Source: Candidatus Eiseniibacteriota bacterium (GTDB taxonomy: Bacteria > Eisenbacteria > RBG-16-71-46). From it: a DNA stretch of 64,000 nucleotides. The position numbers and the translations under genes were made by a program. The notes beneath the pieces were generated by a model. It made no database searches and was not told the DNA's origin. It worked only from the letters and a program-made list of their open reading frames with translations. The stretch lies in the NCBI GenBank assembly GCA_031366795.1, contig JANLOX010000245.1:1691-65690 (forward strand). The letters run 5' to 3'. Of this stretch, positions 15,497-31,662 are shown in pieces. Numbering within the stretch: position 1 is the stretch's first letter; every line of letters begins with the position of its first letter.

Positions 15497-15638
15497 GAGC
15501 GGCGGCAGGTTAGCATTAAGTTCGCGGCGATGCAGGCGTTGCGGCCGGTACGCGAAGGTCACACGCTTAGCGCGTGACGCCCTCGGGTAGGATGTTGACG
15601 TCGCGCCGCGTGAGTGAACCTTCAGCAGCGGAGGTCCT

Positions 15639-16867: not shown

Positions 16868-18187
16868 TTAACTTCCCGAGACGGTCAACCCCTCGAAGCG
16901 CACCGCCGCGGGGCCGAGGTAATCGCCACGGAATACTACTTCTTTGGAGTAGTGCGCCGTGCCCAGCGCGCTGAACACATTGCCGCTCACGGTGCCGCCC
17001 TTGATCGGGGTGATAACGCCCCTGTTGTAGAGCGTGCCCACGCGGATCTCGCTGGCGAACGCGCCGCGCGCATTATCCGGGGTCAGCCACGAAAACGATT
17101 GCACGTACAGCACCGGGCCATCGTGCGACAGTAGCTCGGCGAGCGGTGTCTTACCGGCGGGAAGTTCCCAGTTGGCGAAGCCGCCCGTGGGCTCGACCTT
17201 GAGATAGTCGGCGTACTGCTTCGTCGTCACTGGGCGGTTGAACACGCCGTCCTTGATGACCTCGATGCGCTGCCCGGGGACACCGTTGCCGTCGAACGCG
17301 TAGCTGGCCAGCCCAAATGGCATCAGGGCATTGGACACGACATTGAAGGGTTCGCCCCCTGTGGTGTCGATCGGCAGCGGCTTGCCCTGCTCAAACCGCG
17401 AGGACTTCTGGTAGAGCGATTCCGCCAAAGCATTGTTCTGCACCGGCGAGAGCAAGCCGGTCAACTCCGACGCATCGATCACCACCGCGAACTTGCCGGA
17501 CGGCGGCGCCTGGGCGCGCGTCAGCGCATGAGCCTCATCGGCGGCGCGTCCCACCAGGTTGGCGACGTCGAGATCCGCGATGCGCCGGCGTTCATCCCAT
17601 GAGTAGCGTTCCGATGCTTTGGTGCCATCGGCCAGCAGCAGCGTCAGCAGGGACACCCGCGTGGAACGCGAGTGCGCGAGCAGCCCCGCGGAATTCTCGA
17701 GTGTCTGTTCAGCCTCGCCGCAGAATAATTCCATCGATGAGGGCCGCACTTCGCCGCCGTGCTGCTTGACTGCGTTGCGCCAGGCATCTGCGAGCTGCGC
17801 CGACGTTTCCGCCACGGCATTACTCCCGAGCGCCGGATCGTAGGTGTCCAGCAGCGGAAAGGTGGCGGCACCCGGGAGGCTCCAGGGGTTGACGCCGCCG
17901 AGTCCGGCCATGAAGACGGCGTCGTCGACGCGGCGGTCGAGCTGCAGCACATCGTCCTCGCGGAAGGTCAGGCTCGAGCTGCCGAGCTTGTCACGGTGCT
18001 GGACGAACACGGTCGCGACCACCGTCTCGCCGCTCACCTGCCGCTGCGATTCCAGCTGGGTCTTGACGAGGTAGGTCTGCAGGCCTGCCTGCGAGGTGCG
18101 CGCGAGCTGCCATGCGGCGATGCCCTTGTGCTTCGCGAGTGCAACGCGCGCCGCATCGGCCAACCGGGAACGTGAGGAGATGGTCAT
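16868..18187 (-). CDS. TldD/PmbA-family metalloprotease partner (PmbA/TldE-like)
   Basis: PmbA_TldD-family conservation across the length. Start ATG overlaps the tldD stop (ATGA). Confidence 0.7.
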   Translation of the reverse strand: MTISSRSRLADAARVALAKHKGIAAWQLARTSQAGLQTYLVKTQLESQRQVSGETVVATVFVQHRDKLGSSSLTFREDDVLQLDRRVDDAVFMAGLGGVNPWSLPGAATFPLLDTYDPALGSNAVAETSAQLADAWRNAVKQHGGEVRPSSMELFCGEAEQTLENSAGLLAHSRSTRVSLLTLLLADGTKASERYSWDERRRIADLDVANLVGRAADEAHALTRAQAPPSGKFAVVIDASELTGLLSPVQNNALAESLYQKSSRFEQGKPLPIDTTGGEPFNVVSNALMPFGLASYAFDGNGVPGQRIEVIKDGVFNRPVTTKQYADYLKVEPTGGFANWELPAGKTPLAELLSHDGPVLYVQSFSWLTPDNARGAFASEIRVGTLYNRGVITPIKGGTVSGNVFSALGTAHYSKEVVFRGDYLGPAAVRFEGLTVSGS

Positions 18188-19725
18188 GACACCTTCGCCT
18201 TGGTGCGCAGGTGGGGTCCGCCGCTGGTGACCGCGACGAATTCCTTGAAGCCCTTGCCGCACGAGCCGGGTTCGAGCGCGAAGTCATTGCCGACCATGGT
18301 GATGTTGCCGAGGATCTCGGGAACGTAGCCGGTGATCGTCGGTGGTGCGAAGATGCGGCCGGTGAACTTGCCGTTCTTGACCTCGCGCGCCGTGCCCGCG
18401 GTGAACTGGATGCCCCACCCCTGCGGGTCCTCGATGCCGTTGCGAAAGCCCTCGAGATAGAGACCGTCCTTCAGGCTGTCGAGCATTTCCTGCGGATCGC
18501 TGGTGCCGCGCGCGAAGAATGTGTTCGACATGCGCGCATAGACCTTGCGGTCCCAGCTCTGGGTGCGGCCATTCGGGGTGCGCGAGGTGCGAAGGAACGT
18601 CGCGGACATCAGGTCCGTCAGTGGTTGCACGAAGATGCCATCCTTGATGATGGTCGTGGGCTGGGCCGTGGCGCCTTCATCGTCAAACGCGTACGAACCG
18701 CGCGCGCCCGCGAACGAGGGGTCGTCGAGCAGCGTCACCAGTTTGGAGGCCACCGGCTTGTTGAGGAACTCGCGCGACTTGGCGCGGTCCTTCACGAACT
18801 GGTCCATCTCGACGCCGTGGCCGAAGCTCTCGTGCGCCAGCAATCCCGAGACCTCGGGAGCGAACACCACTTCGTACTCGCCTGCCGGCACGGGCTCGGC
18901 GGTGAGCGACTCGACGAAGTCCTTGCGCAGCTTCTCGATGTCCGTGTCGTTCAAGTGAGCGAGTTCGAGTCCCGCCTGTCCGACGTGGCGGCGAAAGCCG
19001 AAGCCGGGCTTGCCTTTGTCGAAGCCAAACATGAACCCGGTGTGCGCCACCATGGTGCTGACGCTAGCCAGCCGGCGCGTGCGGTCCACGAATACCCGTT
19101 GCGTCTCGGTGACGTCGGTCGAGACGCGCACACCGCGGACGCGGGGATCATCCCAGTTGCAGCGGTCGAATTCCTGGTCGAGCAGGGCCGCGCGGTCCTT
19201 CAGCGGGAGCGCTGCAGGGTCGCGTTCCATCGCGGTATGCCACGTCTGCTGCAATTGCGGGAGCCGCTCGATCCGGTAGCGGTCGGCGGCACGCGGAACC
19301 GAGCGCTTGAGCGCCGCGGCGGCGGCGTGCAAGGCCTGCGGCGAGGTGCTGCCCACGGCGGTCTCGTGAAACGCCCCACCATCGAAGATGCGAATCGAGG
19401 CACCCAACGTAGGTGTACCGGCCTCGCTGACGCGCTTGCCCTTGCGGTCGCGGCTGATCGAAACGCCGCCCGTCGCGATGAACAGCGCCGAGGCGTATGG
19501 GAACTTCGTCTCGAGGTCAGCGACGATGGCGGACAACTCGTCGAGCAGGCCCCCGGGGAATCCAGGGCCCGTTGCGGGGTGGTGCGGAATAGCAGTCGTG
19601 CGATGTGGCATCGAACCCGCGCGGGTGGCGGCGCGCAGCGAGTCGGCGAATGACGACGCGACCACGGCGCCTGCCAACGAGGCGCCGCCTCGGATCAGGA
19701 ACTGCCTGCGGTTCATGGCGGCCAT
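18184..19725 (-). CDS. tldD: TldD-family zinc metalloprotease with twin-arginine (Tat) signal peptide
   Basis: MNRRQFLIRGGASLAGAVVA Tat motif; HESFGHGVE metal-binding motif. Confidence 0.75.
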   Translation of the reverse strand: MAAMNRRQFLIRGGASLAGAVVASSFADSLRAATRAGSMPHRTTAIPHHPATGPGFPGGLLDELSAIVADLETKFPYASALFIATGGVSISRDRKGKRVSEAGTPTLGASIRIFDGGAFHETAVGSTSPQALHAAAAALKRSVPRAADRYRIERLPQLQQTWHTAMERDPAALPLKDRAALLDQEFDRCNWDDPRVRGVRVSTDVTETQRVFVDRTRRLASVSTMVAHTGFMFGFDKGKPGFGFRRHVGQAGLELAHLNDTDIEKLRKDFVESLTAEPVPAGEYEVVFAPEVSGLLAHESFGHGVEMDQFVKDRAKSREFLNKPVASKLVTLLDDPSFAGARGSYAFDDEGATAQPTTIIKDGIFVQPLTDLMSATFLRTSRTPNGRTQSWDRKVYARMSNTFFARGTSDPQEMLDSLKDGLYLEGFRNGIEDPQGWGIQFTAGTAREVKNGKFTGRIFAPPTITGYVPEILGNITMVGNDFALEPGSCGKGFKEFVAVTSGGPHLRTKAKVS

Positions 19726-19895
19726 GAGAGGCACACTAGGACCATCCGCGCTAGGAATCCACGCGAATGTGTGCGCGATGCGCGCCCTCGTGACGAACGC
19801 CGAATTCACGGGGACGACCGCGAGTGTGCGCGGGGGTTTGGGGCACCAAGCGCCGCGACGCGCCGGCCTGCGGTTCGAGTGGTGCGCGCAACCCC

Positions 19896-21110
19896 CTATC
19901 GCGTCGCGGCCGCTCCCGCGGCGCGAATGCCGCACAGGTCGAGGATGCGTTCGTAGCATGCGTCGCCATCAAATTCCGTCCGCACGCGGTGGATTGCATT
20001 CGCGCGCAGCGTGGCAATCCGGGCCCCATCGGTCGACAAGCACTCATGCATCGCCAGCGCCAGCGCGGCGGGATCCTCGGGGGGCACGAGCCAGCCTATC
20101 TCCCCGGAATCCACGGCCTCCCCCATCCCGCCGATCCGCGTGACGATGGGAACGCAGCCGGCCGCCATGCCCTCGAGGAGCGCAAGTGGCAGACCTTCGA
20201 ACCGGCTTGAGAACAGAATCACGTCGAACGCCGACAGCGCATCGAGCGGACGTGCGACGGGGCCCACGAACAGGGCGCGGCGTCCTAACCCAAGTTCACT
20301 CGCCAGCGCAGCGAGGGAGTCGTGATCGGGCCCCTCGCCCGCGATCACCAAAGTGAATGCGCGTGAACCCCCGAGGTCCGCCGTCCGGCGCGCGGCCTCA
20401 AGAGCCAGATCGATACCCTTGACTCCGGTGAGCCGGGTCATCATCCCGAAGACGAATGTCTTGGAGTCGACGCCGTGGGCCGCGCGAAATTGCGACCCGG
20501 CGTCGTCGTCGCGCTGGAAATCATGCCAGCGCACGCCATTGCGCACCACGACGATGTCGTCTGGGGACGCATCCCAATCGCGCACGAGACGGTCGCGTAC
20601 CTTCGAGCTGACGGCGATCACCAGATCGGCGCAACGCGCGGCGTCCTGCTGGCGGTGCTTGCGGCGGCGCCACGCCAGGCCGAGGCTCGGGAGGAAGCCG
20701 AACAATGGCCGCTCGCGCGCAGCGGGCTTAGGGGGAGCCTCGAGATGTTCGATGAACACGACGCTCTTGAACTTCTTGCGGAACGCACGCAGCAGCGGCA
20801 ACTGCCCGTGATAGAAGTGTCCCTTGGGGAAGATCAAGAGTTCGCTGCGCAGCGATTCGAGCACGCGTTTCCACTCGCCCATGTCCACCGGCTGCTCGGG
20901 AGTGATCCCCGGCAGTTCCGTCGGAATCACGCGCACGCTTGGCCCCAGTCCACGTGCCGCCACCCACTCCGTATAGGGATCGAATCGGTTGGCGACGACC
21001 TCAATCGTGGCGCCGCGGCGCACCAGCGCTTCGATCAGGCCGAACGTATGCACCACCGAGCCACCGAACGCCTCCGCTTCCGTGATGATCGCGACATTGC
21101 GGCGTGGCAT
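19896..21110 (-). CDS. glycosyltransferase family 4 (GT-B, retaining)
   Basis: EX7E region FEGLPLALLEGMAAG. Start 3 nt downstream of the GT2 stop. Confidence 0.8.
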   Translation of the reverse strand: MPRRNVAIITEAEAFGGSVVHTFGLIEALVRRGATIEVVANRFDPYTEWVAARGLGPSVRVIPTELPGITPEQPVDMGEWKRVLESLRSELLIFPKGHFYHGQLPLLRAFRKKFKSVVFIEHLEAPPKPAARERPLFGFLPSLGLAWRRRKHRQQDAARCADLVIAVSSKVRDRLVRDWDASPDDIVVVRNGVRWHDFQRDDDAGSQFRAAHGVDSKTFVFGMMTRLTGVKGIDLALEAARRTADLGGSRAFTLVIAGEGPDHDSLAALASELGLGRRALFVGPVARPLDALSAFDVILFSSRFEGLPLALLEGMAAGCVPIVTRIGGMGEAVDSGEIGWLVPPEDPAALALAMHECLSTDGARIATLRANAIHRVRTEFDGDACYERILDLCGIRAAGAAATR

Positions 21111-21113
21111 GTC

Positions 21114-22205
21114 TCAGCGCGCTCCTGGAGCCGCGAAAGCGCGGGCTTCCGCGCGCGGCCACATCGCGAAGGGGGCAGCCACCAAGCCGAGCAGGACGCC
21201 GCGTGACTGTGCGCGACGGCGGAGAGCAGCTTCGCAGTCTTCGCCCGCGTGCTGCCTCCAACGCGCGGGCTGCGACAACACCAGTCGCACGAGCCGGCGC
21301 AACGCCACGCCATCGCCGCACAACACGTGCTTCACGAGATGACCTGAGAGTCCCTTGCCGTAGCTGAATTCCATGTGGCACACCTGCTCGATCTGTGTCC
21401 GGTCGTGATCGTGATGCACCAGGATGTTCGGGGCATAGCGCTGCGTGTACCCAGCCCTTAGCGCGCGATAGAACAGGTCTACTTCCTCGGCCCCGGCGAA
21501 CCAGGCGCCGGCCCCGAGGCGTGTGTCGAATCCGCCCACGCGTCCGAACACTTCGCGCCGGAACGCCATGTTGGCGCCGATCACGAAACTGCCGCTCGCG
21601 GGAAAGGCGAACTCCTGACGCTCCATCGAGGGCTGGTAGGACACCTTCTGCAATCCTCCGTGCGCGAGCAGGACGCGTCCCCCGAGCATGCCGAGCTGGG
21701 GGCTGCTAGCGAACTCTGCCGCGATCTGGTCGAGCCAGCCGGGATCTGGGCGCACATCGTCATCGGTGAACACGATGATTTCACCCCGCGCCGCAGCGAG
21801 CGCGGCATTGCGCGCGTGCGACAGGCCGGATTGGGCCTCGTGCACGTAGCGCACTTGCGGGTGTGCCACGGCACAGGTCTCGATCACCTCGCGCGTCGCG
21901 TCGTTCGAGCCGTTGTCGACGACGATCAGCTCGTGGGCGTAGTCGCCGGAGAAGCGCTGCTCGAAGTACTGCCGGAGGGTGATGGCGAGCGATGCCGCGC
22001 GGTTGCGCGTGCAGAGAGCCACGCTGATCAGCACGAGTTCCCTCCCGTGGGCGCCATCCTGACTTCGAGCCGGCCTGCAATCCGCAGCATGTGCAAGCTC
22101 CAAGCCCGCAGGGTCTGCTGGGTCGATTGGCGCAGCCGCTAGGGTGAAACGCAGCGGCGGGTCGCCAATATCCCGCCGTGAGGCGGGTGGAGCATGCATG
22201 CACAT
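21114..22205 (-). CDS. glycosyltransferase family 2
   Basis: ISVALCTRNRA...VVDNGSNDAT...FTDDDV GT-A motifs. Start uncertain (ATG 22205/22199, or further upstream to 22376). Confidence 0.65.
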   Translation of the reverse strand: MCMHAPPASRRDIGDPPLRFTLAAAPIDPADPAGLELAHAADCRPARSQDGAHGRELVLISVALCTRNRAASLAITLRQYFEQRFSGDYAHELIVVDNGSNDATREVIETCAVAHPQVRYVHEAQSGLSHARNAALAAARGEIIVFTDDDVRPDPGWLDQIAAEFASSPQLGMLGGRVLLAHGGLQKVSYQPSMERQEFAFPASGSFVIGANMAFRREVFGRVGGFDTRLGAGAWFAGAEEVDLFYRALRAGYTQRYAPNILVHHDHDRTQIEQVCHMEFSYGKGLSGHLVKHVLCGDGVALRRLVRLVLSQPARWRQHAGEDCEAALRRRAQSRGVLLGLVAAPFAMWPRAEARAFAAPGAR

Positions 22206-22469
22206 GGTGAGCGTGACGCGCCATCCTAATGCGATGGCGTTGCTTGGGCCAAGCCCCGCGTTCCGGTGGCGCATGGCACCGACTATGCAGTGTAGGGGTA
22301 CGAGACCTCGAAGGGTGCCATGCGTCCGCAGGGTCGACAGGCGTCCTGCCCTCGCGGCAAGGCGCACCTGTTGCATCCTGCGAACGGCAACTCCTCCTTG
22401 CCCCGGTTCGCAGGTCGGATCGTCCGATGCCTGATCAACCTGCCCGCAGTTCCAGAGGGGAATGCTTTC

Positions 22470-25400
22470 GTGCAGCGACGCTTGAGTAACGGGTGCCTTG
22501 CGGTTGTGGTGAGTCTCATGGTGCCTGCCTTAGCCGCGGCGGCCACCGTGCCGCCCCAGTTCGTCGATGAGAACATCGCTCCAGGATCGACGTTCACCGA
22601 CCCCACCGCGATCGCCTACCTGCCCGGGGGCCGGCTGCTCGTCGCGGAGAAGCGCGGCCGCGTCTACTCGATCACGCAGGGCGTCAAGAGCGCGAACCCC
22701 CTGTGGTCGCGCGAGAACGAAGTGATGAATGACGGCGACCGCGGCCTGCTGGGTCTCGCGGTCGATCCCAACTACGCCACCAACCACTACATCTACCTGC
22801 TGTACTCGGTCGACCCTGATTCGGACGGCGTCGACACCGCCCCCACGGACGACTTCGGCCGGCTCACGCGTTATCGCATCAGCTTCACCGACTCCACGAC
22901 CGTCGATGCCGCCTCACGCACAATCCTGATGGGCGTCAGCTGGCGCTATGGCCCCGTTCACTGCTTCAACTCGCATGCGGTGGGATCGCTGCGCTTTGGC
23001 GCAGACGGCAGCCTGCTGGTCTCGGCAGGCGATGGCGCCTCGTGGGCCACGACCGACGCGGGTGGGCTCGATGCGGGTGATTTCGGCGCGAGCGTCAACC
23101 AGACGGATCCCTACCAGGACATCGGTTCGTTCCGGGCGCAGTCGCTGAGCAGCCTCAACGGCAAGGTGCTGCGCATCAATCCCGCCAACGGCGCGGGTTA
23201 CCGCAGCAATCCCTACTTCGACGGCAATCCCTACTCGGTCCGCTCGCGCATCTGGGCGTATGGAATGCGCAACCCGTTCCGCTTCTGCGTCCGCCCTTCC
23301 ACCGGCGTTGCCGACACCTCGGCCGGAAATCCGGGCACGCTGTTCATCGGCGATGTGGGATGGGAGACATGGGAAGAAGTCAATGTGGTCACCGCACCCG
23401 GACCGAATTTCGGCTGGCCCTGCTATGAAGGCAACGGCACCCAGCCCGCGTACCAGGCCGCCAATCCTGCCCACAACGGTTGTGGCAGCAACGGCACCGC
23501 CGACAACCCGGCGATGCAGTCCTCCCCGCTGATGACGTGGCATCACTTGGATGCCGCGCTGGGTTCGCCGGCCGGCTTCGCGGGCAACTGCGTGATCGGT
23601 GGCATGTTTTACACCGCCACGAAATATCCCGCGGTCTATCGCGGCGGTTACTTCTTCGCGGATTTCGGCACCAACTGGATTCGCTGTGCCACGCTCAACG
23701 CCAGCAACCAGGTCGTCTCGGTGAGCGACTTCGCCACCGGCCTCACCGGCCCGGTCGACTTCGCGCCCGATCCCGTGACCGGTGATCTTGTCTACGTTGC
23801 CATCATGACCGGCGAAGTGCGGCGCATCCGCTTCACCGGCATCAATGGCAACGCGCCGCCGGTGGCCATGGGCGTAGCCAGTGTGAGCTACGGCACCTCG
23901 CCTCTGACCGTGAGCTTCTCGAGTGCGGGCACCTATGATCCGGAGGCGCAGCCGGTCACGGTGTCGTGGGCGTTCGGCGATGGTCCCTCGAGCAACATCC
24001 CAAACCCGAGTCACACCTACTTGTCGCCGGGGACTTACGCGGCGGTGCTCACCGCCGACGATGGGCAGGGGGGTGTCGGCCGCGACACCCTCATGATCGT
24101 GGTTGCCGGCTCGACCGCATTCCCTGCCTCCCCAGTGCTCGACTTGTTCAATCGCGCCGATGCCGCCTTGGCAACGCCCTGGACCGGCAACCTTACGGGA
24201 CTCACCGTAACGGCCAATGCCCTCGTCTCGAGCGGCGAATACTCCTCCGCCCTGTGGGGAACCGCCGCCTACGGCGTGAACCAGGAAGCCTACGTGACAC
24301 TCTCCACCGCATCGCCGCTGGCCACCGAGCAGGATCTGTTGCTCAAGGTGCAGGGTGCCGGGCCGGACGACGCCGCGATCGAAGTCTGGTACTCCGCTTC
24401 GTCCACCAGCGTCAACGTACTCACCTTCGCGCTCCAGCAGGGTTGGGTGCAACGCGGCGTGCTGTCTCCCATCAACTTCGGCCCGGGCGACCGTTTCGGC
24501 GCGCGCGCGTTGGCGAATGGCGATCTGCAAGTGTTCAGCGGGCGCGACCTGCTCGGCACGGTGAGCCTCGGCGATTGGCCATTCGCGCGGCGCGGCGGAC
24601 GCATTGGGTGTTCGTTCACCGATGCCGGTGGTTCACGCTTCGACGATTTTGGCGGTGGCGACTCCAACCTCGGCGTCAGCGCCGCGCCCGTCGTACACGT
24701 GCTCATGCCCAATGGCGGCGAAGCATGGACGGGCGGCACGGCCCACGCCATCACATGGAATGCGACGGACGACTTTGGCGTTACCTCGGTCGATGTCGCC
24801 TATCGGGAAGCCGCGAGCCCCGCGTGGCTTCCGCTGTCACTCGGCCAGGCCAACAACGGCAGCTACACGTGGTTCGTCCAGAACACCCCGAGTTCGACCG
24901 TGAAGGTCCGGGTCACCGCGCGCGACGCTTCGGGCAACGCGGGGGTTGATTCGAGCGATGCCGTCATGTCGATTCTCGCGACCCCCGGTGGTCACGTCCC
25001 GACGACCCTGCGCGATTTCCACCAGCCGGGCACGCAACCGCTCGAGGCGGGAACCTTCAGCAGCCACGACGCGTGCTACAGCTGCCATGGCGGCTACAAC
25101 GCCGCGGTGGAACCCGGGCAGGGATTCCGCGGCACCATGATGGCCCAGGCGGCACGCGACCCGCTGTTCTACGCCTGCCTCGCGGTCGCCGAACAGGACG
25201 CGCCGTCGTCGGGCGACCTGTGCATCCGTTGTCACGCTCCGCTCGATTGGCTCGGCGGCCGCAGCCAGCCGACCAGTGGCGCCAACATCTCGACGCTGGG
25301 ACGCGACGGCGTCACCTGCGACTTCTGCCACCGCATGGTGGATCCCATTTACAAGCCCGGCGTCAGCCCGGCGGAGGACCAGACCGTGCTCGCCGGCATG

Positions 25401-26894
25401 CTTCCCGCACATGTGCCCACCAGCCGCTCGAATGGCCAGTATGTGGTCGACGCCAACACACGCCGCCGCGGCCCCTTCACCGACCCCGCGACACCGCACG
25501 CCTTCGTGGCGTCGCCGTTCCATTCATCGAGCGACTTGTGCGCGACCTGCCATGAAGTGTCGAACCCAGTGTTCGCCCGCGCGCACGGATCCAAGTACGT
25601 GGCGGGTCCATTCAATACCCCCGCCGACTCGATCAGCTCGGCGACGCTGATGCCGCTCGAGCGCACCTATAGCGAATGGAAAAACAGCGCATTCCCCACC
25701 GGCGTGTTCGCGCCGCAGTTCGCGGGCAACATTCCCGATGGCACGGTGCGCTCCTGCCAGGATTGCCACATGCGCGACGTGACCGGGCAGGGCTGTGACT
25801 ACGGCACGCCGCCGGTGCGCTCCAACCTGCCGATGCACGACATGATGGGCGGCAATGCCTGGGCGGGCGGCGTCATTGCCTCGATGTTCCCGAATGAAGT
25901 CGATGCCGCTGCGCTGGCCGCGGGTGCGGCGCGTGCGGTGTCGATGCTGCAGAAGGCCGCGACCGTGGATGTCCGCGTGCTGCCGCAGGGGGATAGCCTG
26001 CGCGCCACCGTGGTGGTCACGAACCACACCGGTCACAAGCTGCCGACGGGCTACCCGGAAGGCCGCAGGATGTGGATCCATCTCGTGGCGAAGGATGGCG
26101 CAGGCAACGTCGTCTACCAGTCGGGCGTTTACAACGCGTCGACGGGTGTGTTGGCGCGCGATGCCAAGGCGCGGATTTACGAAGCCGAACTCGGGCTCTC
26201 CCCCGCATTCGCGACGCAGCTGGGCCTGCCGGCGGGACCGAGCTTCCACTTCGCCTTGAACGACACGCTGTATAAGGACAACCGCATTCCGCCGGCGGGT
26301 TTCACCAACGCGGCGTACGATGTGTTCGGTGGCGCGCCGGTGGATCTCGAGGGGCCGACGCCGCGCTACGCCGACAACCAGAACTGGGACATCGCGACCT
26401 ACACGCTGCCCGCCGCCGCGGCCTCGGTGGTGGCGACGCTCTACTACCAGACGACCTCGAAGGAATACGTCGAATTCCTCAAATCGGAGAATACCACCAA
26501 CGCCGCAGGGCAGACCCTGCAGACGGCGTGGACCAGCAACGGCCGCGCGGCGCCGGTGGTGATGGCGAGTGACTCGACACGCACCCAGGTGCTCAGCGTC
26601 ACGGACTCAGCCTTGCCGCGCACCGTGGCGTTGCGCGCGCTGGCGAACCCGTTCCGCGGCCCCCTCAACCTGATGCTGTCGCTGCCGCGCTCCGCCAGCG
26701 TGCGCTTCGAAATCATCGATGTCGCAGGCCGCGTGGTGCGGCGAATGACGCCGCAGCGCGTCGCCGCGGGCGAGCAGCGCCTGAGTTGGGATGGCCGCGA
26801 TGCCGATGGTCACGCCGCCCATCCGGGCGCCTACTGGGCGAGCGTATGGGTGGATGACCAGCGCCTGGTGAAGAACGTCGTTTCATTGCGCTAG
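22470..26894 (+). CDS. secreted fusion protein: soluble quinoprotein-type glucose/sorbosone dehydrogenase beta-propeller + PKD domain + Ig-like domain + pentaheme c-type cytochrome domain + T9SS-type C-terminal sorting domain
   Basis: GTG start with GAGGGG Shine-Dalgarno and a signal peptide. GDVGWETWEEVN...NFGWPCYEG (GSDH). WAFGDGPSSNIPNPSHTY (PKD). CxxCH motifs CYSCH, CIRCH, CDFCH, CATCH, CQDCH at ~25072-25768. Tail ANPFRGPLNLMLSLP...GAYWASVWVDD. Confidence 0.8.
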   Translation: MQRRLSNGCLAVVVSLMVPALAAAATVPPQFVDENIAPGSTFTDPTAIAYLPGGRLLVAEKRGRVYSITQGVKSANPLWSRENEVMNDGDRGLLGLAVDPNYATNHYIYLLYSVDPDSDGVDTAPTDDFGRLTRYRISFTDSTTVDAASRTILMGVSWRYGPVHCFNSHAVGSLRFGADGSLLVSAGDGASWATTDAGGLDAGDFGASVNQTDPYQDIGSFRAQSLSSLNGKVLRINPANGAGYRSNPYFDGNPYSVRSRIWAYGMRNPFRFCVRPSTGVADTSAGNPGTLFIGDVGWETWEEVNVVTAPGPNFGWPCYEGNGTQPAYQAANPAHNGCGSNGTADNPAMQSSPLMTWHHLDAALGSPAGFAGNCVIGGMFYTATKYPAVYRGGYFFADFGTNWIRCATLNASNQVVSVSDFATGLTGPVDFAPDPVTGDLVYVAIMTGEVRRIRFTGINGNAPPVAMGVASVSYGTSPLTVSFSSAGTYDPEAQPVTVSWAFGDGPSSNIPNPSHTYLSPGTYAAVLTADDGQGGVGRDTLMIVVAGSTAFPASPVLDLFNRADAALATPWTGNLTGLTVTANALVSSGEYSSALWGTAAYGVNQEAYVTLSTASPLATEQDLLLKVQGAGPDDAAIEVWYSASSTSVNVLTFALQQGWVQRGVLSPINFGPGDRFGARALANGDLQVFSGRDLLGTVSLGDWPFARRGGRIGCSFTDAGGSRFDDFGGGDSNLGVSAAPVVHVLMPNGGEAWTGGTAHAITWNATDDFGVTSVDVAYREAASPAWLPLSLGQANNGSYTWFVQNTPSSTVKVRVTARDASGNAGVDSSDAVMSILATPGGHVPTTLRDFHQPGTQPLEAGTFSSHDACYSCHGGYNAAVEPGQGFRGTMMAQAARDPLFYACLAVAEQDAPSSGDLCIRCHAPLDWLGGRSQPTSGANISTLGRDGVTCDFCHRMVDPIYKPGVSPAEDQTVLAGMLPAHVPTSRSNGQYVVDANTRRRGPFTDPATPHAFVASPFHSSSDLCATCHEVSNPVFARAHGSKYVAGPFNTPADSISSATLMPLERTYSEWKNSAFPTGVFAPQFAGNIPDGTVRSCQDCHMRDVTGQGCDYGTPPVRSNLPMHDMMGGNAWAGGVIASMFPNEVDAAALAAGAARAVSMLQKAATVDVRVLPQGDSLRATVVVTNHTGHKLPTGYPEGRRMWIHLVAKDGAGNVVYQSGVYNASTGVLARDAKARIYEAELGLSPAFATQLGLPAGPSFHFALNDTLYKDNRIPPAGFTNAAYDVFGGAPVDLEGPTPRYADNQNWDIATYTLPAAAASVVATLYYQTTSKEYVEFLKSENTTNAAGQTLQTAWTSNGRAAPVVMASDSTRTQVLSVTDSALPRTVALRALANPFRGPLNLMLSLPRSASVRFEIIDVAGRVVRRMTPQRVAAGEQRLSWDGRDADGHAAHPGAYWASVWVDDQRLVKNVVSLR

Positions 26895-27286: not shown

Positions 27287-27676
27287 ATGAAGGAACTCCA
27301 AACATTGAGCCGCCGTGAGCGTGAGATCATGGACATCGTGTTCGGCACCGGCGCCGCGTGTGCCACCGCCACCGAAGTGCGTGAACGCATGCCCGATGCG
27401 CCGAGCTATTCCGCGGTGCGCGCGACGATGCGCGTGCTTGAGCAGAAGGGCCTGCTCAAGCATGAACACGACGGCAAGCGCTATGTTTACCGGCCGACGC
27501 TGCATCCGCTGAAGGCGCGCAAGAACGCCATCACCCACCTCGTGAACACCTTCTTTGATGGCTCGGCCGCCGGAGCCTTGCTGACGCTGCTCGAACAGCC
27601 CGGCAATGACATCACGCCTGCCGAGTTGGACCGCATGGCGCAATGGATCGATCGCGCGCGAAAGGAAGGCCGCTAA
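27287..27676 (+). CDS. BlaI/MecI/CopY family transcriptional repressor
   Basis: Penicillinase_R-type winged helix (LSRREREIMDIVF...TATEV...YSAVRATMRVLEQKGLL). Stop overlaps the downstream start (TAATG). Confidence 0.85.
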   Translation: MKELQTLSRREREIMDIVFGTGAACATATEVRERMPDAPSYSAVRATMRVLEQKGLLKHEHDGKRYVYRPTLHPLKARKNAITHLVNTFFDGSAAGALLTLLEQPGNDITPAELDRMAQWIDRARKEGR

Positions 27677-30126
27677 TGGGTTCCTGGAGCTCCGCCGTGG
27701 GGTCAGCCGCGGATGCGGTGACTGCAGGTTCCGTGCTGCTGTTCCTCCTGCGCGTGACGATTGTCGCCGCGACCGGGCGCCTGCTGCTGGCCCTGTTGCC
27801 GAAGGCCTCAGCCGCGTCGCGCCACTTGGTCGCCACCGTGACGCTGGCGGCACTCGTGGCTTTGCCCATCGTGATGGCGGTGGTTCCCGCCTGGAAGTTG
27901 CCGATGCTTCCCCAGCGGGAGTCGTTCCGCGTTGCGGCTCCCGCCTTGTCGGTGACGACCGCGGAGACATTCGTTCGTCGCACCTACGATGAGGTGGATG
28001 GCGATGTTCCGTTCGCTGCCGCAACACCGCGTTCCACCCCTGCCGCGCCTCGTGCGGCGCTTCCCAGCGCAACGCCCCGCTCGCCCGCGATTCCCATGAC
28101 GTGGCCACTGGCGTTGACCCTCGTGGTGATTGGCGCCTCCGAGCTGATGCTGTTGCGCTGCGCGTTGTCGCTGGCGGCGGCTGCATGGTTCGCGCGCTGC
28201 GCGGACGACGTGACGGAGCCCGGGTTGATCGAGGCATTCGATGCGGCTCGCGGCCAGCTCAATGTAGGGCGCAACGTCAACCTGCGTATCACCTCGCGCG
28301 TTTCGGTTCCCGTCGTCGCGGGAGTATTCCATCCGACGCTGCTGCTGCCCCCCGAAGCGCGCGCCTGGAGTCGTGAGCGCCTGGACGTCGTGTTCCTCCA
28401 CGAGTTGGCTCACGTCCAGCGGCTCGACACCTTATCGCTGGTGGTGGCGCGCCTGGCCGGTGGACTCTATTGGTTCCATCCCATCGTTCGCGGGCTGGCG
28501 CTCGAGGCGCGACGCGATTGCGAACAGGCGTGTGACGATCGCGTGCTGGCGAGCGGGATCCGCGCTTCAGTCTATGCAGAGCATTTGCTGACCATCGCCC
28601 GCACAGCCGCGGTCCGCGATCCGTTGGGCACTGCGGTGCTGGCGATCGCGCGGCCGTCCAACCTCGAACAACGCCTGTCATCGATCCTGAGCTTGGGCGT
28701 TGAACGCGCCCCTGCCTCACGCGGCGCCGTCGCGCTCGCCGCGCTACTCGGTGCGCTGCTGCTGCTGCCGCTGGCCTCGGTACATGTCACCGCGGCGCCC
28801 GCTCACGCTGCGAGCAAGACTGACACGCTCGTTTGGCGCTCGAACCGCGTGGCGCCCGTCGCGCCGGTGGCATCACGCCGGCCTGCCCCGGCTTTGCGCG
28901 CGCTCGCACCACCGGCAGCTCCCGCAGCCCCTTCGGCGCCTGGCATCCCGGCTCCCGTGGGTAATTCATGGAGCAGCTCGTCAAACTCCGGGGGGGACAA
29001 CTACCCGGACCGTTCCGGACGCGATTGGTATTCACGCGCGCGCCGTAACTACGAGCGCGACCATTACGCCGAGTCGGGCGACCAGTACGAACGCGCGGCT
29101 CGCGCCGGCTACAACATCGAAACGGCGTTCTACGATGCCGCCTGCTCCTACTCCCTGGCGCACCAGACCGAACGCGCCTTCTCGGCGCTGCGTGACGCGG
29201 CCAATGCGGGTTGGGACGATGCGGACCAGATGAACTCGGACGATGACTTCGACTTCATCCGCCATGACCACCGCTTCAAGGAGATCGTCGAGGAGGTGCG
29301 TCACGCCGATCCCGATGAGGCGGATCGCAAGTCTGCGAGCGCAGAATTAAAGGCGCTGCGCTCGCAGCGCTCGAGCGACGCCAATGACTGGGGCAGCAGC
29401 GGCGTGTCCCTGATGCACTCGGGCGACCCGGCGAAGGCCGTGACTGCATTCGAGACCCAGATCAAGATCAGGCCAACGGCGAACGCGCTGTACAACCTGG
29501 CGTGCGCCCATGCGCTCAATGGCGACCACCGTGCGGCGTATGAGGCGCTGGAGCGTTCAATCGCCGCCGGATTCAGCAGCCCGGAGCACATGCGCAAGGA
29601 TGATGACCTCGAAGCCCTGCAGGGTGAGAAGCGCTTCGATGAACTCGTACGCATGACGGAGATGCTCGAGTTGAACGACGAGCACCTGAGCGACAACGAG
29701 CCGGCCGGCTGGAGCAAGACGCTGCCCCGCTACCAGCGGGTGTCGCAGCAATATCCCAACGTGGGCAGGGCGTGGTTCAACCTCGGCTATGCGCAACTTC
29801 GCGCGCGCCGGTTCGAGGACAGCCGCGCGTCGTTCGAACGGGGGCTGGAACTCGGCTACCGCCGCGGCACCTCGATGTACGACTTGGCCTGCGTCTCGGC
29901 GCAACTGCGCGAGCCGAGCGAAGCGGTGAAATGGCTGCAGCGCGCGAAGGCCGAAGGCATGGAGCTCGCCCTCTATCTCGCGACCGATCGCGACCTCGAC
30001 CCCATTCGCTCGGATTCCGGTTTCCGTGAATTCAAGCGCAGCGTTGGGGACGAAACCTTCGAGCGGGGACGCCGGACACTGAAGCAGAAGCTCGACAAGC
30101 TGGGACGCGCGCTCGACGATATGTAG
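27676..30126 (+). CDS. BlaR1-like M56 family membrane peptidase/sensor with C-terminal TPR domain (no penicillin-binding domain)
   Basis: TM helices; VVFLHELAHVQRLD (HExxH). Ala/Pro-rich linker, then >=4 TPR-like repeats. Confidence 0.8.
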   Translation: MGSWSSAVGSAADAVTAGSVLLFLLRVTIVAATGRLLLALLPKASAASRHLVATVTLAALVALPIVMAVVPAWKLPMLPQRESFRVAAPALSVTTAETFVRRTYDEVDGDVPFAAATPRSTPAAPRAALPSATPRSPAIPMTWPLALTLVVIGASELMLLRCALSLAAAAWFARCADDVTEPGLIEAFDAARGQLNVGRNVNLRITSRVSVPVVAGVFHPTLLLPPEARAWSRERLDVVFLHELAHVQRLDTLSLVVARLAGGLYWFHPIVRGLALEARRDCEQACDDRVLASGIRASVYAEHLLTIARTAAVRDPLGTAVLAIARPSNLEQRLSSILSLGVERAPASRGAVALAALLGALLLLPLASVHVTAAPAHAASKTDTLVWRSNRVAPVAPVASRRPAPALRALAPPAAPAAPSAPGIPAPVGNSWSSSSNSGGDNYPDRSGRDWYSRARRNYERDHYAESGDQYERAARAGYNIETAFYDAACSYSLAHQTERAFSALRDAANAGWDDADQMNSDDDFDFIRHDHRFKEIVEEVRHADPDEADRKSASAELKALRSQRSSDANDWGSSGVSLMHSGDPAKAVTAFETQIKIRPTANALYNLACAHALNGDHRAAYEALERSIAAGFSSPEHMRKDDDLEALQGEKRFDELVRMTEMLELNDEHLSDNEPAGWSKTLPRYQRVSQQYPNVGRAWFNLGYAQLRARRFEDSRASFERGLELGYRRGTSMYDLACVSAQLREPSEAVKWLQRAKAEGMELALYLATDRDLDPIRSDSGFREFKRSVGDETFERGRRTLKQKLDKLGRALDDM

Positions 30127-30365
30127 CCGGTGGAGCACGGCGGCGATCCCGCTGCCACGCCCGCCCTCCAAGTGCCCGGAACCGTAGCTGGACGCGAGAC
30201 GGGTCGTCGCGCGCCGGAGCGGCACGCAATCGCAGGGCCGCGAGGCGCCGGGATTGCATCCGGGCACTTTGAGTTGCTGTCTTGCGCGGGCAGACGTCCC
30301 TCCTGCCCTGTGATAGTGGCCCTCAAGTGCCAGGGAGTCGTCGCTTCGGGTATCATTGGGGCCAC

Positions 30366-30764
30366 ATGAAGACCCTCAGCACGGAAGAGGCGGCCCGGCT
30401 GCTGCAGCTCAACGTAAAAGCGGTCCAACGCAGGGCCAGGGCGGGAACGCTCCCGGCGGTGCGGGTCGGCCGCAAGTGGCTGTTTCACGAGGACCAACTG
30501 CAGCGCCTGCTCGGCCGCGCCACAAATGACGCCTCGGCTCCGGTGCTCGAACTGAGCGCCCGCAACCGGCTCAAGGGAACCATCACGCGACTCCACGTCG
30601 ATGGCCTGATGGCGGAGGTCCTGTTGCGCATCGGCGACCAGGAACTGGTGGCGATCATCACGCGCTCTTCATGCGAGCGGATGGGTCTCGAGGTGGGCGC
30701 CGAAGTGTTCGCCGTCATCAAGTCCACCGAAGTGATGATCGGGCGGCTGGGGCGCGACGCGTGA
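30366..30764 (+). CDS. HTH (excisionase/MerR-like) + TOBE (molybdate-binding Mop) domain regulator
   Basis: HTH: LLQLNVKAVQRRARAGTLPAVRVGRKWLF. TOBE: NRLKGTITRLHVDGLMAEVLLRIGDQELVAIIT...VFAVIKSTEVMIG. Confidence 0.7.
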   Translation: MKTLSTEEAARLLQLNVKAVQRRARAGTLPAVRVGRKWLFHEDQLQRLLGRATNDASAPVLELSARNRLKGTITRLHVDGLMAEVLLRIGDQELVAIITRSSCERMGLEVGAEVFAVIKSTEVMIGRLGRDA

Positions 30765-30810
30765 CGCCTCGGGCGTTGAGCGCATCGCGATGAGATTGCG
30801 GGCGACCGCT

Positions 30811-30848
30811 GGCGCGGGACGCGCGGGACGCGCGGGATGCGCGGGACG
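30811..30848 (+). repeat. tandem 9-bp repeat (cgcgggacg x4, one variant) between the TOBE gene and modB
   Basis: gcgcgggacg cgcgggacgc gcgggatgcg cgggacgcga read directly from the sequence. Confidence 0.5.
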
Positions 30849-30864
30849 CGACGCCTCGAGCTGG

Positions 30865-31662
30865 ATGGTGCTGTCGGTGTGCGCCAGCGGACTGTTGCTC
30901 GTGTTCCTGGGGCTGCCCTTTGTCAGCCTGCTGTTGCGCGCCTCACCCTCACAACTGCTTGAGCATCTCACCCACCCCACGGTCTTGTCGGCCCTGCGTT
31001 TGAGTCTTGTGACCGCAGCGAGTTCGACGCTGTTGACCGTGGTGTTCGGCACCCCGCTCGCCTGGCTGCTGGCCACACGCGAGTTCCGGGGCAAACGTGT
31101 CATCGAAACGCTGGTCGACCTGCCGATGGTCCTGCCACCCACCGTGGCGGGCTTCGCCTTGCTCCTGGCTTTTGGCCGCATGGGGCTGGCGGGACGCGCG
31201 CTCGATGCAGTGGGCATCCACCTGCCCTTCACGACACTGGGAGTGGTGGCGGCCCAGTTGTTCATGTCCGTGCCCTTCTACGTGTCCCCCGCGCGCGCGG
31301 GGTTCGCCGCGGTGGACCGCCGCTACCTCGATGCGGCGGCAACGCTCGGCGCTTCGGAAACCTTCCGCTTCACCCGCGTGGTGCTGCCGCTCGCGCGTCC
31401 CGCGCTGATTGCCGGCATCGCCATGGCGACGGCGCGCGCCTTGGGCGAGTTCGGCGCCACCATCATGTTCGCCGGCAACCTCCCCGGCACGACGCAGACC
31501 ATGCCGCTCGCGGTCTATGTCGCGATGAATTCCGATCTCGATACCGCCATCGTGCTTGCCATCCTGCTGTTGGTGATGTCGTTCACCCTGTTGCTGGGTC
31601 TACGCGCCTCGCCTTCGACCTTCCTGTGGAACCGCGGCCGTGCTGCAAGTCCAGCTTCGTAA
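30865..31662 (+). CDS. modB: molybdate ABC transporter permease
   Basis: Aligns with E. coli ModB from the first TM onward (LPPTVAGFALLLAFGRMG...ARALGEFGATIMFAGNLPG). Alternative start at 30790 would read through the tandem repeat. Confidence 0.8.
   Translation: MVLSVCASGLLLVFLGLPFVSLLLRASPSQLLEHLTHPTVLSALRLSLVTAASSTLLTVVFGTPLAWLLATREFRGKRVIETLVDLPMVLPPTVAGFALLLAFGRMGLAGRALDAVGIHLPFTTLGVVAAQLFMSVPFYVSPARAGFAAVDRRYLDAAATLGASETFRFTRVVLPLARPALIAGIAMATARALGEFGATIMFAGNLPGTTQTMPLAVYVAMNSDLDTAIVLAILLLVMSFTLLLGLRASPSTFLWNRGRAASPAS

Follow-up and report, generated by a model that had tools for sequence, protein, structure and literature searches.

Soluble PQQ glucose/aldose dehydrogenases are small, periplasmic enzymes that pass their electrons to a separate acceptor (cytochrome b562 or ubiquinone). 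The closest functional analogues of the protein described here are cellobiose dehydrogenase and the fungal pyranose dehydrogenase CcPDH (AA8 cytochrome b, AA12 PQQ propeller, CBM1); in CcPDH, electrons from PQQ pass through a built-in cytochrome to external acceptors, including LPMO (PMC6881789). The idea of a GSDH-like propeller serving a c-type cytochrome recurs in bacteria, where six-bladed PQQ propellers lie next to, or are fused with, mono- or diheme cytochromes c (bioRxiv 10.64898/2026.07.10.737718), and in PVC-type "membrane-bound dehydrogenase + CxxCH" proteins (TIGR02604); the partners there are class I mono- and diheme cytochromes of the periplasm, not pentaheme c552-type modules carried by a secreted protein with a lectin domain.

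Among pentaheme cytochromes, the low-potential c552 of Thermochromatium tepidum (PDB 5ZE8) occurs on its own as a soluble periplasmic protein (385 to 435 aa) with no known function, and the PHC family comprises ExtKL, GSU2801, and the sPHC/lPHC of cable bacteria. One member of the c552/ExtKL family is an enzyme: MccSep/ExtKL (GSU2937-2936), a periplasmic, tetrameric pentaheme selenoprotein polysulfide reductase whose catalytic selenocysteine (Sec) is carried by a stem loop (10.1101/2025.11.18.688581). In the PHC fusions reported to date, the partner is a truncated hemoglobin, not a dehydrogenase.

Domain architecture and conservation

In a 64-kb stretch of DNA (the window) from Candidatus Eisenbacteria, an uncultured soil and sediment bacterium, a single gene encodes a protein that begins with a signal peptide and continues with a GSDH propeller, then PKD, ConA-like lectin, and Big_7 Ig domains, a pentaheme cytochrome c, and finally an FlgD-Ig domain (Table 1). 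The earlier note had not recognized this layout as described; our literature search likewise found no paper on this fusion, and the combination of propeller, lectin-like domain, and five-heme cytochrome is conserved but undescribed. The open frame ending at 26894 (+) could start at ATG 22320, yielding 1524 aa, or at GTG 22470, yielding 1474 aa, and public gene callers disagree between the two; the start at 22470 is favored because full-length homologues measure 1442 to 1493 aa. From this GTG, the N-terminus reads as a typical Sec signal peptide (MQRRLSNGCLAVVVSLMVPALAAAA followed by TVPP), with a Shine-Dalgarno-like AGAGGGGA 8 to 15 nt upstream.

That mis-assembly or a frameshift fused two adjacent genes is effectively refuted, and we assign this origin next to no probability: the protein recurs without change in seven independent assemblies, where its contigs reach 244 kb, a 90%-identical copy is syntenic in MAG GFS_11975, 22 full-length homologues of 54 to 69% identity are collinear with it, and the frame is uninterrupted. 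The single-ORF architecture proposed for 22470-26894 is therefore real, and its domains are not mis-joined. At least six Eisenbacteria MAGs carry the fusion; two copies are present in some of these, and in L006 a pair is arranged in tandem.

Four more clusters, defined at 50% identity, join GSDH to the same heme module via other linkers: PKD only (P0380), DUF11 (P0290), or a Dicty repeat (P0277, from a Myxococcota MAG), with a malectin domain at the N-terminus of the fourth (P0294). The fusion unites two families that are each very common alone in Eisenbacteria: the cytochrome is missing from over 2000 relatives of the propeller half and the propeller from over 7000 relatives of the heme half, and in only 1 of 72 loci are the two families neighbors.

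The gene is divergent from a GT2-GT4 operon with which, according to the earlier note, it shares a 260-bp promoter region. An interval of about that size (~265 bp) requires GT2 to start at Met58 or Met60, and the neighborhood is shared with the closest relative only: the operon is syntenic in the 90%-identical relative, with no such synteny at other fusion loci.

Table 1. Features of the fusion gene and its upstream flank, in window coordinates
Feature	Position	Strand	Basis or remark
Intergenic region next to divergent GT2 gene	22206..22469	.	size set by GT2 start
Whole gene, secreted multidomain protein, 1474 aa	22470..26894	+	GTG start
Sec-type signal peptide, aa 1-25, cut after AAA	22470..22544	+	read from translation
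GSDH-type six-bladed beta-propeller, aa 30-458	22557..23843	+	Pfam PF07995, PDB 2ism, hhalign
PKD domain, aa 461-544	23850..24101	+	PKD_4 PF18911, E 5e-16; ColH PKD matches
ConA-like lectin/jelly-roll beta-sandwich, aa 545-741	24102..24692	+	without Pfam match
Big_7 Ig-like domain, aa 740-835	24687..24974	+	PF17957, aa 740-814, E 5e-5
Pentaheme cytochrome c module, aa 840-1372, ~530 aa	24987..26585	+	
Heme 1 CYSCH, C869/C872/H873	25074..25088	+	invariant
Heme 2 CIRCH, C918/C921/H922	25221..25235	+	invariant in 22; H922 in 53/54
Heme 3 CDFCH, C950/C953/H954	25317..25331	+	invariant
Heme 4 CATCH, C1024/C1027/H1028	25539..25553	+	invariant
Heme 5 CQDCH, C1096/C1099/H1100	25755..25769	+	invariant
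Stem-loop motif NHTGHKLPTGYPEGRRMW, aa 1185-1202	26022..26075	+	alignments to 9wt8, 5ze8; residue frequencies
C-terminal FlgD-Ig type beta-sandwich, aa 1390-1474, candidate T9SS-like sorting domain	26637..26891	+	

The propeller and linker domains

The N-terminal GSDH-type propeller, already noticed from the translation, is confirmed by Pfam PF07995 (aa 43-330, E 5e-29, 102 bits, spanning profile positions 2-230 of 332 only), and it also matches PDB 2ism (E 1.6e-16) and, by hhalign, E. coli YliI (probability 99.2). TIGR03606 reaches 55 bits (cut-off, 434), and matches to DUF7133 and TIGR02604 are weak. This propeller shares its six-bladed fold with those of sGDH (1C9U), Asd/YliI (2G8S), and T. 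thermophilus (2ISM), and it retains the residues in contact with the PQQ quinone oxygens, the catalytic His and an Arg-Asn dyad: His169 (YliI H147) and Arg267-Asn268 (YliI R214-N215) do not vary among the 22 fusion proteins, nor do other active-face motifs (GDVGWxTWEE and NFGWPCxEG). Unlike these enzymes, the fusion propeller has divergent blades 5-6 and extra insertions (e.g., aa 190-222 and 320-360) and, in three independent alignments, offers no counterpart of the sGDH/Asd PQQ-carboxylate ligands R406/R408/K377 (YliI R341/R343); depending on the alignment, R406/R408 correspond to Ser417/Ser419 or Gly427/Val429, and K377 corresponds to Gly400. The PQQ site expected of a quinoprotein sugar dehydrogenase is thus kept in its catalytic residues and lacks its C-terminal Arg pair and Lys, which bind the PQQ carboxylates, so that PQQ dependence is putative.

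The missing ligands speak for a different reading, in which the propeller is non-redox (as in Hedgehog-interacting protein, HHIP) and, with the lectin, would only attach the surface cytochrome to a particle or glycan; the hemes would then be fed by a conduit of the cell rather than by sugar oxidation. HHIP structures, with the same fold and no PQQ, are among the sequence matches for blades 1-3; the propeller+PKD+lectin unit serves generally as a chassis, also for many fused non-redox modules (such as CARDB, Big_9, and fn3); and the heme module is mostly independent of any dehydrogenase. We nonetheless consider this reading unlikely: the invariant His, Arg-Asn dyad, and active-face motifs would be superfluous in a pure binding module; among enzymes, GSDH accompanies the heme module most often (4 of 40 long representatives), joined via several different linkers; and no porin-cytochrome conduit genes flank the fusion gene. 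Malectin, CBM96, and dockerin also co-occur with the heme module, which points to carbohydrate-linked chemistry.

Propeller and hemes are separated by three beta-sandwich domains (~375 aa). Both the PKD domain and the PNGGE-type Ig domain of the earlier description were recovered, the latter as Big_7, which always accompanies the pentaheme module in relatives (their matches start at aa 735-747). What had been taken for an unassigned beta-rich region of ~280 aa is actually ~195 aa long and has a ConA-like lectin/jelly-roll fold; this domain is probably carbohydrate-binding.

The pentaheme module

The protein has exactly five CxxCH motifs, as first read (at coordinates off by ≤3 nt), and CxxCH is absent from every other ORF of the window. 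Their occurrence is not due to chance, since all five are kept in 22/22 full-length homologues and across 54 diverse relatives with identities down to 37% (H922 in 53/54). Distal ligands could come from six conserved His/Met residues (H1010, H1123, and H1189 in 54/54, M891 in 52/54, H1260 in 49/54, and H1018 in 44/54), which, judged from this conservation, would be enough for five six-coordinate electron-transfer hemes.

The module consists of an alpha-helical five-heme cap, an Ig-like stem, and extra beta elements. It weakly matches NF040886 (E 7e-7) and 9wt8 (E 0.003) and belongs to the T. tepidum c552/ExtKL ("PHC") superfamily, most relatives of the module standing alone; it is not an MccSep-type enzyme. 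The supposed five-heme "wire" is, as such, a five-heme cytochrome, although a cap-plus-Ig-stem module of this family rather than a plain wire. Its five CxxCH motifs follow one another as in c552, and the two share an Ig-like stem with an N..GH..PTG.P motif; the module differs in being ~150 aa larger, in its embedding in a 1474-aa secreted multidomain protein, and at the Sec-equivalent position (Tyr in the fusion module, Ala in c552). The cap-plus-Ig-stem design is also that of MccSep/ExtKL, and a conserved stem loop reaching towards a heme is common to MccSep/PHC proteins and the fusion module: here H1189 is invariant, and Y1195 sits where MccSep has its catalytic selenocysteine. Unlike MccSep, the fusion module has neither Sec nor Cys in this loop and no conserved heme-ligating Cys, and its score is far under the MccSep/ExtKL family cut-off (28 versus 250 bits).

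This loop invites the alternative that the pentaheme module is itself catalytic, with one reactive heme (as in the polysulfide reductase MccSep and in NrfA), so that the protein would form an extracellular redox couple oxidizing sugar against a soluble oxidant (sulfur species, nitrogen oxide, peroxide, or O2). The fusion module has the stem loop on which MccSep bears its catalytic Sec, in strongly conserved form (GHKLPTGYPEGRRMW), with Tyr1195 at the Sec position in 46/54 relatives; a five-coordinate heme has been predicted for PHC-family members (PMC11976967); and the low heme density (5 hemes per 530 aa) is enzyme-like. Against this, no conserved non-motif Cys could stand for the heme-ligating C239 of MccSep (C903 is found in 13/54 and C1109 in 29/54), the six conserved His/Met residues may all serve as distal ligands, and the closest solved relative, c552, is without known function, such that we judge a reductase to be quite improbable.

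Localization

The C-terminal tail, first described as a T9SS-type sorting tail, does bear a weak likeness to T9SS CTD models, but it is of the FlgD-Ig type and falls under the model cut-offs: FlgD_ig PF13860 matches aa 1398-1459 (E ~1e-10 to 1.7e-12), compared with E 6e-5 for the PorU CTD region, E 0.096 for PF18962, and 14.6 bits (cut-off, 23; E 0.025) for TIGR04183. Were the tail no secretion signal, the protein would be periplasmic, like sGDH, Asd, MccSep, and c552, and would supply the respiratory chain with electrons from sugar oxidation. Many heme-module relatives in Planctomycetota and Verrucomicrobiota do lack the tail (matches end near aa 1367), and our literature search found no paper linking T9SS to multiheme cytochromes. 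Several observations nevertheless make a periplasmic protein very unlikely in our view: a train of PKD, lectin, and Ig domains is typical for surface proteins; hundreds of relatives share the terminal domain; NCBI names one relative (P0211) a T9SS type A sorting domain protein; three heme-module relatives carry a true Por_Secre_tail and one a dockerin; and the window also encodes a canonical T9SS-CTD cargo, a protein with a bona fide Por_Secre_tail. The tail is a candidate T9SS sorting signal. The window contains no recognizable pqq, ccm, or T9SS genes.

Proposed function

We propose, as an evenly balanced call, that the protein is a Sec-exported multidomain oxidoreductase, probably surface-displayed, that would couple sugar oxidation through five c-hemes to an external acceptor. 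The lectin-like domain would hold the protein on a glycan, and the propeller, with His169 as the base and PQQ or a similar bound quinone as cofactor, would oxidize an aldose or the reducing end of a sugar. Two electrons would then reach the five c-hemes, by intramolecular fold-back docking or between neighboring molecules, and pass to an extracellular acceptor, candidates being metal oxides, humic quinones, O2, and a polysaccharide monooxygenase. Of the self-contained electron-exporting module envisaged earlier, the one-chain architecture stands; the path from sugar through hemes to an outside acceptor is one that we infer, and three beta-sandwich domains part the propeller from the hemes. Also weighing against the proposal are the missing PQQ-carboxylate ligands, the incomplete GSDH profile match, the low TIGR03606 score, the lack of pqq, ccm, and T9SS genes in the window, the abundance of each half without the other, their separation in genomes, and the sub-threshold tail.

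We liken the fusion protein to quinohemoproteins and consider it quinohemoprotein-like. As in CcPDH, a six-bladed propeller (that of CcPDH being a PQQ enzyme), a built-in cytochrome, and a carbohydrate-binding module (a probable one in the fusion protein) lie on one chain, which is probably extracellular here too; in contrast to CcPDH, with its one b-heme in an AA8 domain, the fusion protein is bacterial, has another domain order and a putative cofactor, and carries five c-type hemes in an unrelated fold. If the proposed function is true, the protein would be a bacterial c-heme counterpart of the fungal quinohemoprotein CcPDH (AA12-AA8-CBM1) or of cellobiose dehydrogenase, and its layout may couple extracellular sugar oxidation to electron disposal.

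Gene limits and reality of the fusion

The plus-strand frame is open from either an ATG at 22320 or a GTG at 22470 to the stop codon at 26892 to 26894, and of the public gene calls for the identical protein, some begin at the ATG (1524 aa) and others at the GTG (1474 aa). We favor the GTG because it yields a classical signal peptide, has AGAGGGGA upstream, and gives a length that matches those of full-length homologues (1442 to 1493 aa); only with this start is a signal peptide present and overlap with the divergent GT2 open reading frame (ORF) avoided. The protein contains exactly five CxxCH motifs and is the sole product of an ORF in the 64-kb window to contain any.

Features of the fusion protein, its surroundings, and selected related loci
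Feature	Position	Strand	Remarks
Fusion gene	22470-26894	+	GTG start
GSDH propeller	residues 43-330		Pfam E 5e-29
PKD	residues 461-544		Pfam E 5e-16
Junction of the two halves	near aa 735-740 (nt ~24680)
Big_7	residues 740-814		Pfam E 5e-5
CxxCH motifs	nt 25074, 25221, 25317, 25539, 25755	+
FlgD_ig	residues 1398-1459		Pfam E 1e-10
Secreted 1103-aa protein	10215-13526	-	Lamin-tail, purple-acid-phosphatase N, two PLD-like domains, bona fide Por_Secre_tail
Fused DctQ-DctM TRAP transporter	13664-15775	-	~7 kb upstream of fusion gene
Two TldD/PmbA-type metallopeptidase genes, then GT4 and GT2	16868-22376	-	Divergent from fusion gene
BlaI-type repressor, then BlaR1/M56 sensor-protease	27287-30126	+	Directly downstream of fusion gene; sensor-protease with long C-terminal TPR extension
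ModE-like regulator and molybdate ABC transporter genes	30282-32713	+	Downstream of fusion gene
894-aa protein	34025-36709	-	Signal peptide, DUF4350, Kre9/Big_7 Ig, Flg_new_2 repeats; no heme motifs
Tandem pair of full-length fusion genes	L006:6136-14940		Eisenbacteria MAG EsbW_18-Q3-R4-48
Example of a ~900-aa pentaheme protein	L009:10001-12214
Separate propeller and pentaheme genes	L064:10304-17063		Phycisphaerae MAG; GSDH-like propeller gene (28% identity) ~4 kb from pentaheme gene, opposite strand

The earlier note had read this gene as a single polypeptide, and the fusion is genuine: an identical protein is present in seven assemblies, on contigs of up to 244 kb; the closest genome match (Candidatus Eisenbacteria MAG GFS_11975) has a 90%-identical copy with syntenic flanks; and at least six Eisenbacteria MAGs encode full-length fusions. 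Two copies are present in some of these genomes, either as a tandem pair or, in MAG GFS_11975 (loci L002 and L003) and MAG_AAO_H125.51 (L004 and L005), as two paralogues each. A chimeric assembly is ruled out by these matches, and an artifact is scarcely conceivable. Such fusion genes are already in public databases, under generic names.

Relatives and partners of the two halves

Each half also has abundant relatives. Residues 34 to 767 are 53% identical to ~1000-aa proteins named "PQQ-dependent sugar dehydrogenase" (>2000 relatives, with varied C-terminal modules), and residues 740 to 1474 are 63% identical to ~900-aa proteins composed of Ig, pentaheme, and tail domains (>7000 matches). In a representative library, the heme module forms 2954 clusters at 50% identity. 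Its hosts include Eisenbacteria, Krumholzibacteriia, Fibrobacteraceae, Planctomycetota, Verrucomicrobiota, Kiritimatiellota, and Ignavibacteria.

The ~900-aa proteins (P0121 to P0240; also loci L008 to L081, for example L010 and L025) consist of an N-terminal region of ~165 aa followed by Big_7, the pentaheme module, and the FlgD-Ig tail. Thousands of them, all unannotated, occur in Eisenbacteria, Krumholzibacteriia, and Fibrobacteraceae, with tail-less versions in Planctomycetota, Verrucomicrobiota, and Kiritimatiellota; stand-alone pentaheme genes are arranged in tandem at L022 and L025. The Big_7-pentaheme-FlgD-Ig proteins seem to be a major family of exported multiheme cytochromes that has not been described.

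Joining of the heme module to a GSDH propeller recurs. Within the top 150 representative clusters, GSDH stands beside the heme module, joined via other linkers, in four besides that of the window protein: PKD only, with CBM96 (P0380); DUF11 (P0290); a Dicty repeat, in a Polyangiaceae/Myxococcales MAG (P0277); and malectin plus GSDH (P0294). GSDH is the commonest enzyme partner of the module (4 of 40 long representatives), other partners in this set including malectin, CBM96, MopE copper motifs, and a lysyl oxidase; lysyl oxidases likewise use a quinone cofactor. In P0247, P0294, P0371, and P0380 and in alignment A4, the module is joined to a dockerin, malectin, CBM96, or MopE copper-binding motifs, and in one protein to a lysyl-oxidase domain. 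The recurrence of the GSDH-heme fusion and the range of partner domains favor a redox role of the module in carbohydrate-linked chemistry and electron exchange between it and the propeller.

Placement of the pentaheme module

On its own, the heme region has only subthreshold Pfam matches, to c3, c7, and c554 (E of about 0.01 at best), and a below-threshold NCBIfam match to the ExtKL multiheme (seleno)protein (E 7e-7; NF040886, 28.1 bits against a cutoff of 250); placing it took a profile search and a structure model. A single-sequence search of the PDB returned 5ze8 (the pentaheme c552 of T. tepidum) and 9wt8 (MccSep), at E of about 0.003, over TNHTGHKLPTGYP. With a profile of 54 diverse relatives (alignment A3), the match to 5ze8 reaches E 3.4e-9 in four collinear stretches covering the heme 1 to 3 region, heme 5, and the Ig-like stem, whereas the match to 9wt8 is absent from this profile search of the PDB. 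An AlphaFold2 model of aa 840 to 1380 has a mean pLDDT of 95.2, and the fold contains both an alpha-helical heme cap and an Ig-like stem. The five CxxCH motifs stand in c552/PHC order and are invariant in the 22 full-length homologues and in the 54 relatives; with the 5ze8 profile match, this bears out the proposal that they constitute a cytochrome c module. The "PHC" family unites c552, Geobacter ExtKL/MccSep, GSU2801, and the sPHC/lPHC of cable bacteria; its members combine a five-heme alpha-helical cap with an Ig-like stem, and the family has been connected with a cytochrome nanowire of archaea (PMC11976967; bioRxiv 10.1101/2025.11.18.688581).

One member, MccSep, is a periplasmic polysulfide reductase whose heme 2 is His/Cys ligated and whose catalytic selenocysteine lies in a D-G-U-P stem loop (bioRxiv 10.1101/2025.11.18.688581). 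The fusion protein differs in having Tyr1195 at the Sec position of the D-G-U/C-P loop, where Tyr stands in 46 of the 54 relatives, His in 3, and Phe in 2. None of these relatives' cysteines outside the CxxCH motifs is conserved (C903, 13/54; C1109, after heme 5, 29/54), the comparison with the MccSep heme-2 ligand C239 being one of Cys conservation and not of residue-level alignment. Candidate distal ligands are H1010, H1123, and H1189 (each in all 54), M891 (52), H1260 (49), and H1018 (44). Given the Tyr at the Sec position, the lack of a conserved extra Cys, and the availability of His/Met ligands, the heme module is a member of the c552/PHC superfamily and not an MccSep-type enzyme.

Two specific enzymes can be set aside: an MccSep/ExtKL polysulfide reductase, on the absence of Sec/Cys from the loop and of a conserved heme-2 Cys and on the low NF040886 score, and an NrfA-type pentaheme nitrite reductase, on the failure to find a CxxCK active-site heme or the NrfA fold. 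More generally, with a catalytic heme site the protein would by itself form a full redox couple outside the cell; the family does include a reductase, and the module at hand has conserved His/Met candidates, and we regard this reading as unlikely.

The propeller and its putative cofactor

The propeller scores above the Pfam gathering threshold for GSDH (PF07995; 102.1 bits, cutoff 25), in a match that covers just profile positions 2 to 230 of 332, the first two-thirds of the model; it falls far short of the TIGR03606 subfamily cutoff (54.9 versus 434.55 bits). Among solved GSDH-fold proteins, its homologues include 2ism (E 1.6e-16), 3a9g, 3das, 2g8s, and 1c9u; Hedgehog-interacting protein is also among its PDB matches. 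We aligned it with Escherichia coli YliI, the Asd aldose dehydrogenase, in three ways: by hhalign of profile against single sequence (probability 99.2, 360 columns), by MAFFT with other fused propellers, and profile against profile, the last adding little, as the YliI homologues gathered were close enterobacterial orthologues only and the Asd profile was shallow (Neff 1.4).

All three alignments retain the catalytic base (His169, matching YliI H147 and H144 of soluble glucose dehydrogenase [sGDH]) and an Arg-Asn dyad (Arg267-Asn268, within a GMRNPFR motif, matching YliI R214-N215), each invariant in 22/22 fusion homologues. In sGDH (R228-N229) and the fungal enzyme CcPDH (R430-N431), the corresponding dyad contacts the O4 and O5 atoms of PQQ. 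In sGDH, the PQQ carboxylates are bound by a blade-6 RxR (R406/R408) and a blade-5 Lys (K377) (PMC6881789); the CcPDH counterpart of the Arg is R621. None of the three alignments places a basic residue at the positions of this Arg pair or Lys: YliI R341/R343 fall on Ser417/Ser419 (hhalign) or Gly427/Val429 (MAFFT), alignment confidence in blades 5 and 6 being low, and the Lys equivalent falls on Gly400. The calcium ligands of sGDH/Asd-type enzymes are backbone carbonyls.

The quinoprotein assignment of the earlier note thus stands for the His and the Arg-Asn dyad and fails for the C-terminal Arg pair and Lys. PQQ dependence of the propeller is plausible, and we put it no higher because the carboxylate ligands have no basic counterpart, the Pfam match is partial, and TIGR03606 is below its cutoff. 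The missing Arg pair and Lys, and the Hedgehog-interacting protein match, would suit a propeller serving as a non-redox targeting module; the invariant His and Arg-Asn would not, and we think such a role unlikely.

Gene neighborhood

No conserved neighbors of fusion or stand-alone pentaheme genes emerged from 80 loci; what looked like neighbor clusters were shadow ORFs within the high-GC gene. Of 72 loci, one (L064) has GSDH and pentaheme as separate, adjacent genes. The GT2-GT4 operon, described in the earlier note as sharing the promoter region of the fusion gene, is syntenic along with the TldD/PmbA genes only in the 90%-identical MAG (L002) and is absent from L003 to L007, L016, and L050; we therefore discard a functional link. 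At L016, too, BlaI has a homologue near the fusion gene, at a distance of ~9 kb. TRAP systems, one of which is encoded upstream in the window, often take up organic or sugar acids. No pqq, ccm, or type IX secretion (T9SS) genes were seen within the 64-kb window.

The C-terminal tail and localization

The C-terminal 100 aa have a strong match to FlgD_ig (E 1.7e-12) and weak ones to T9SS models (TIGR04183, E 0.025 and 14.6 bits against a cutoff of 23; PF18962, E 0.096; PorU CTD region, E 6e-5); the proposed T9SS-type sorting tail is a candidate sorting domain. Indirect support for export comes from the same tail closing hundreds of relatives, one of which NCBI names a T9SS type A sorting protein; from relatives of the heme module that carry a true Por_Secre_tail (three) or a dockerin (one); and from the Por_Secre_tail protein encoded at 10215 to 13526, a sign that T9SS-type sorting is in use in this organism. 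We infer that surface display is likely; residence in the periplasm, to which the low T9SS scores might point, is improbable beside these signs of export. The tail of the 894-aa protein ends like that of the fusion protein, placing both in the same surface-protein repertoire. The literature searched yielded no description of T9SS-type tails on multiheme cytochromes and no papers on T9SS in Eisenbacteria or on "type IX secretion" with "multiheme cytochrome."

Proposed function and implications

The most likely reading, to which we would give an even chance, has four steps: the lectin domain would tether the protein to a glycan; the propeller, with a quinone cofactor bound, would oxidize a reducing sugar; electrons would pass to the hemes, whether between neighboring molecules or within one that folds back over its three intervening beta-sandwich domains so that the two ends dock; and the hemes would reduce an extracellular acceptor. 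Of this picture, the domains, their conservation, and the repeated fusion are observed, and the cofactor, the direction of electron flow, the localization, and the acceptor are inferred. More tentatively, and with considerable doubt, we propose a self-contained surface sugar:acceptor oxidoreductase of Eisenbacteria (sporadically of Myxococcota and others), in which the propeller would oxidize external glycans and the linked pentaheme module would discharge the electrons to minerals, humics, oxygen, or oxidative polysaccharide-cleaving enzymes.

Quinohemoproteins, CDH, and CcPDH are known dehydrogenase-cytochrome fusions that pass substrate electrons to external acceptors. In function, the fusion protein comes nearest to CcPDH of fungi (AA8 cytochrome b, AA12 PQQ propeller, and CBM1), from which electrons go on to external acceptors and LPMOs (PMC6881789). 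Mono- or diheme cytochromes fused or adjacent to six-bladed PQQ propellers have also been reported from bacteria (bioRxiv 10.64898/2026.07.10.737718). In the literature searched, we found no description of a bacterial six-bladed GSDH propeller joined to a multiheme c552-type module, nor anything on sorbosone dehydrogenase with multiheme, in agreement with the earlier impression that the architecture is new.

If the propeller is not redox active, the finding is one more mix of common surface-protein modules. If the oxidoreductase proposal is true, the protein would be a bacterial c-heme analogue of fungal CDH/PDH, and the fusion would be a "Rosetta stone" for two abundant stand-alone Eisenbacteria families (GSDH-PKD-lectin and T9SS-like-exported Ig-pentaheme-CTD) that together would form a previously unrecognized extracellular redox system. 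Should the electron flow be real, the protein would be a candidate for the redox partner that bacteria use in the oxidative breakdown of polysaccharides, or a means of conduit-free extracellular electron disposal; as a sugar dehydrogenase already "wired" by nature, it would be of interest for bioelectrocatalysis; it would also provide a first function for thousands of unannotated pentaheme surface proteins of Eisenbacteria, Krumholzibacteriia, Fibrobacterota, and the PVC phyla.
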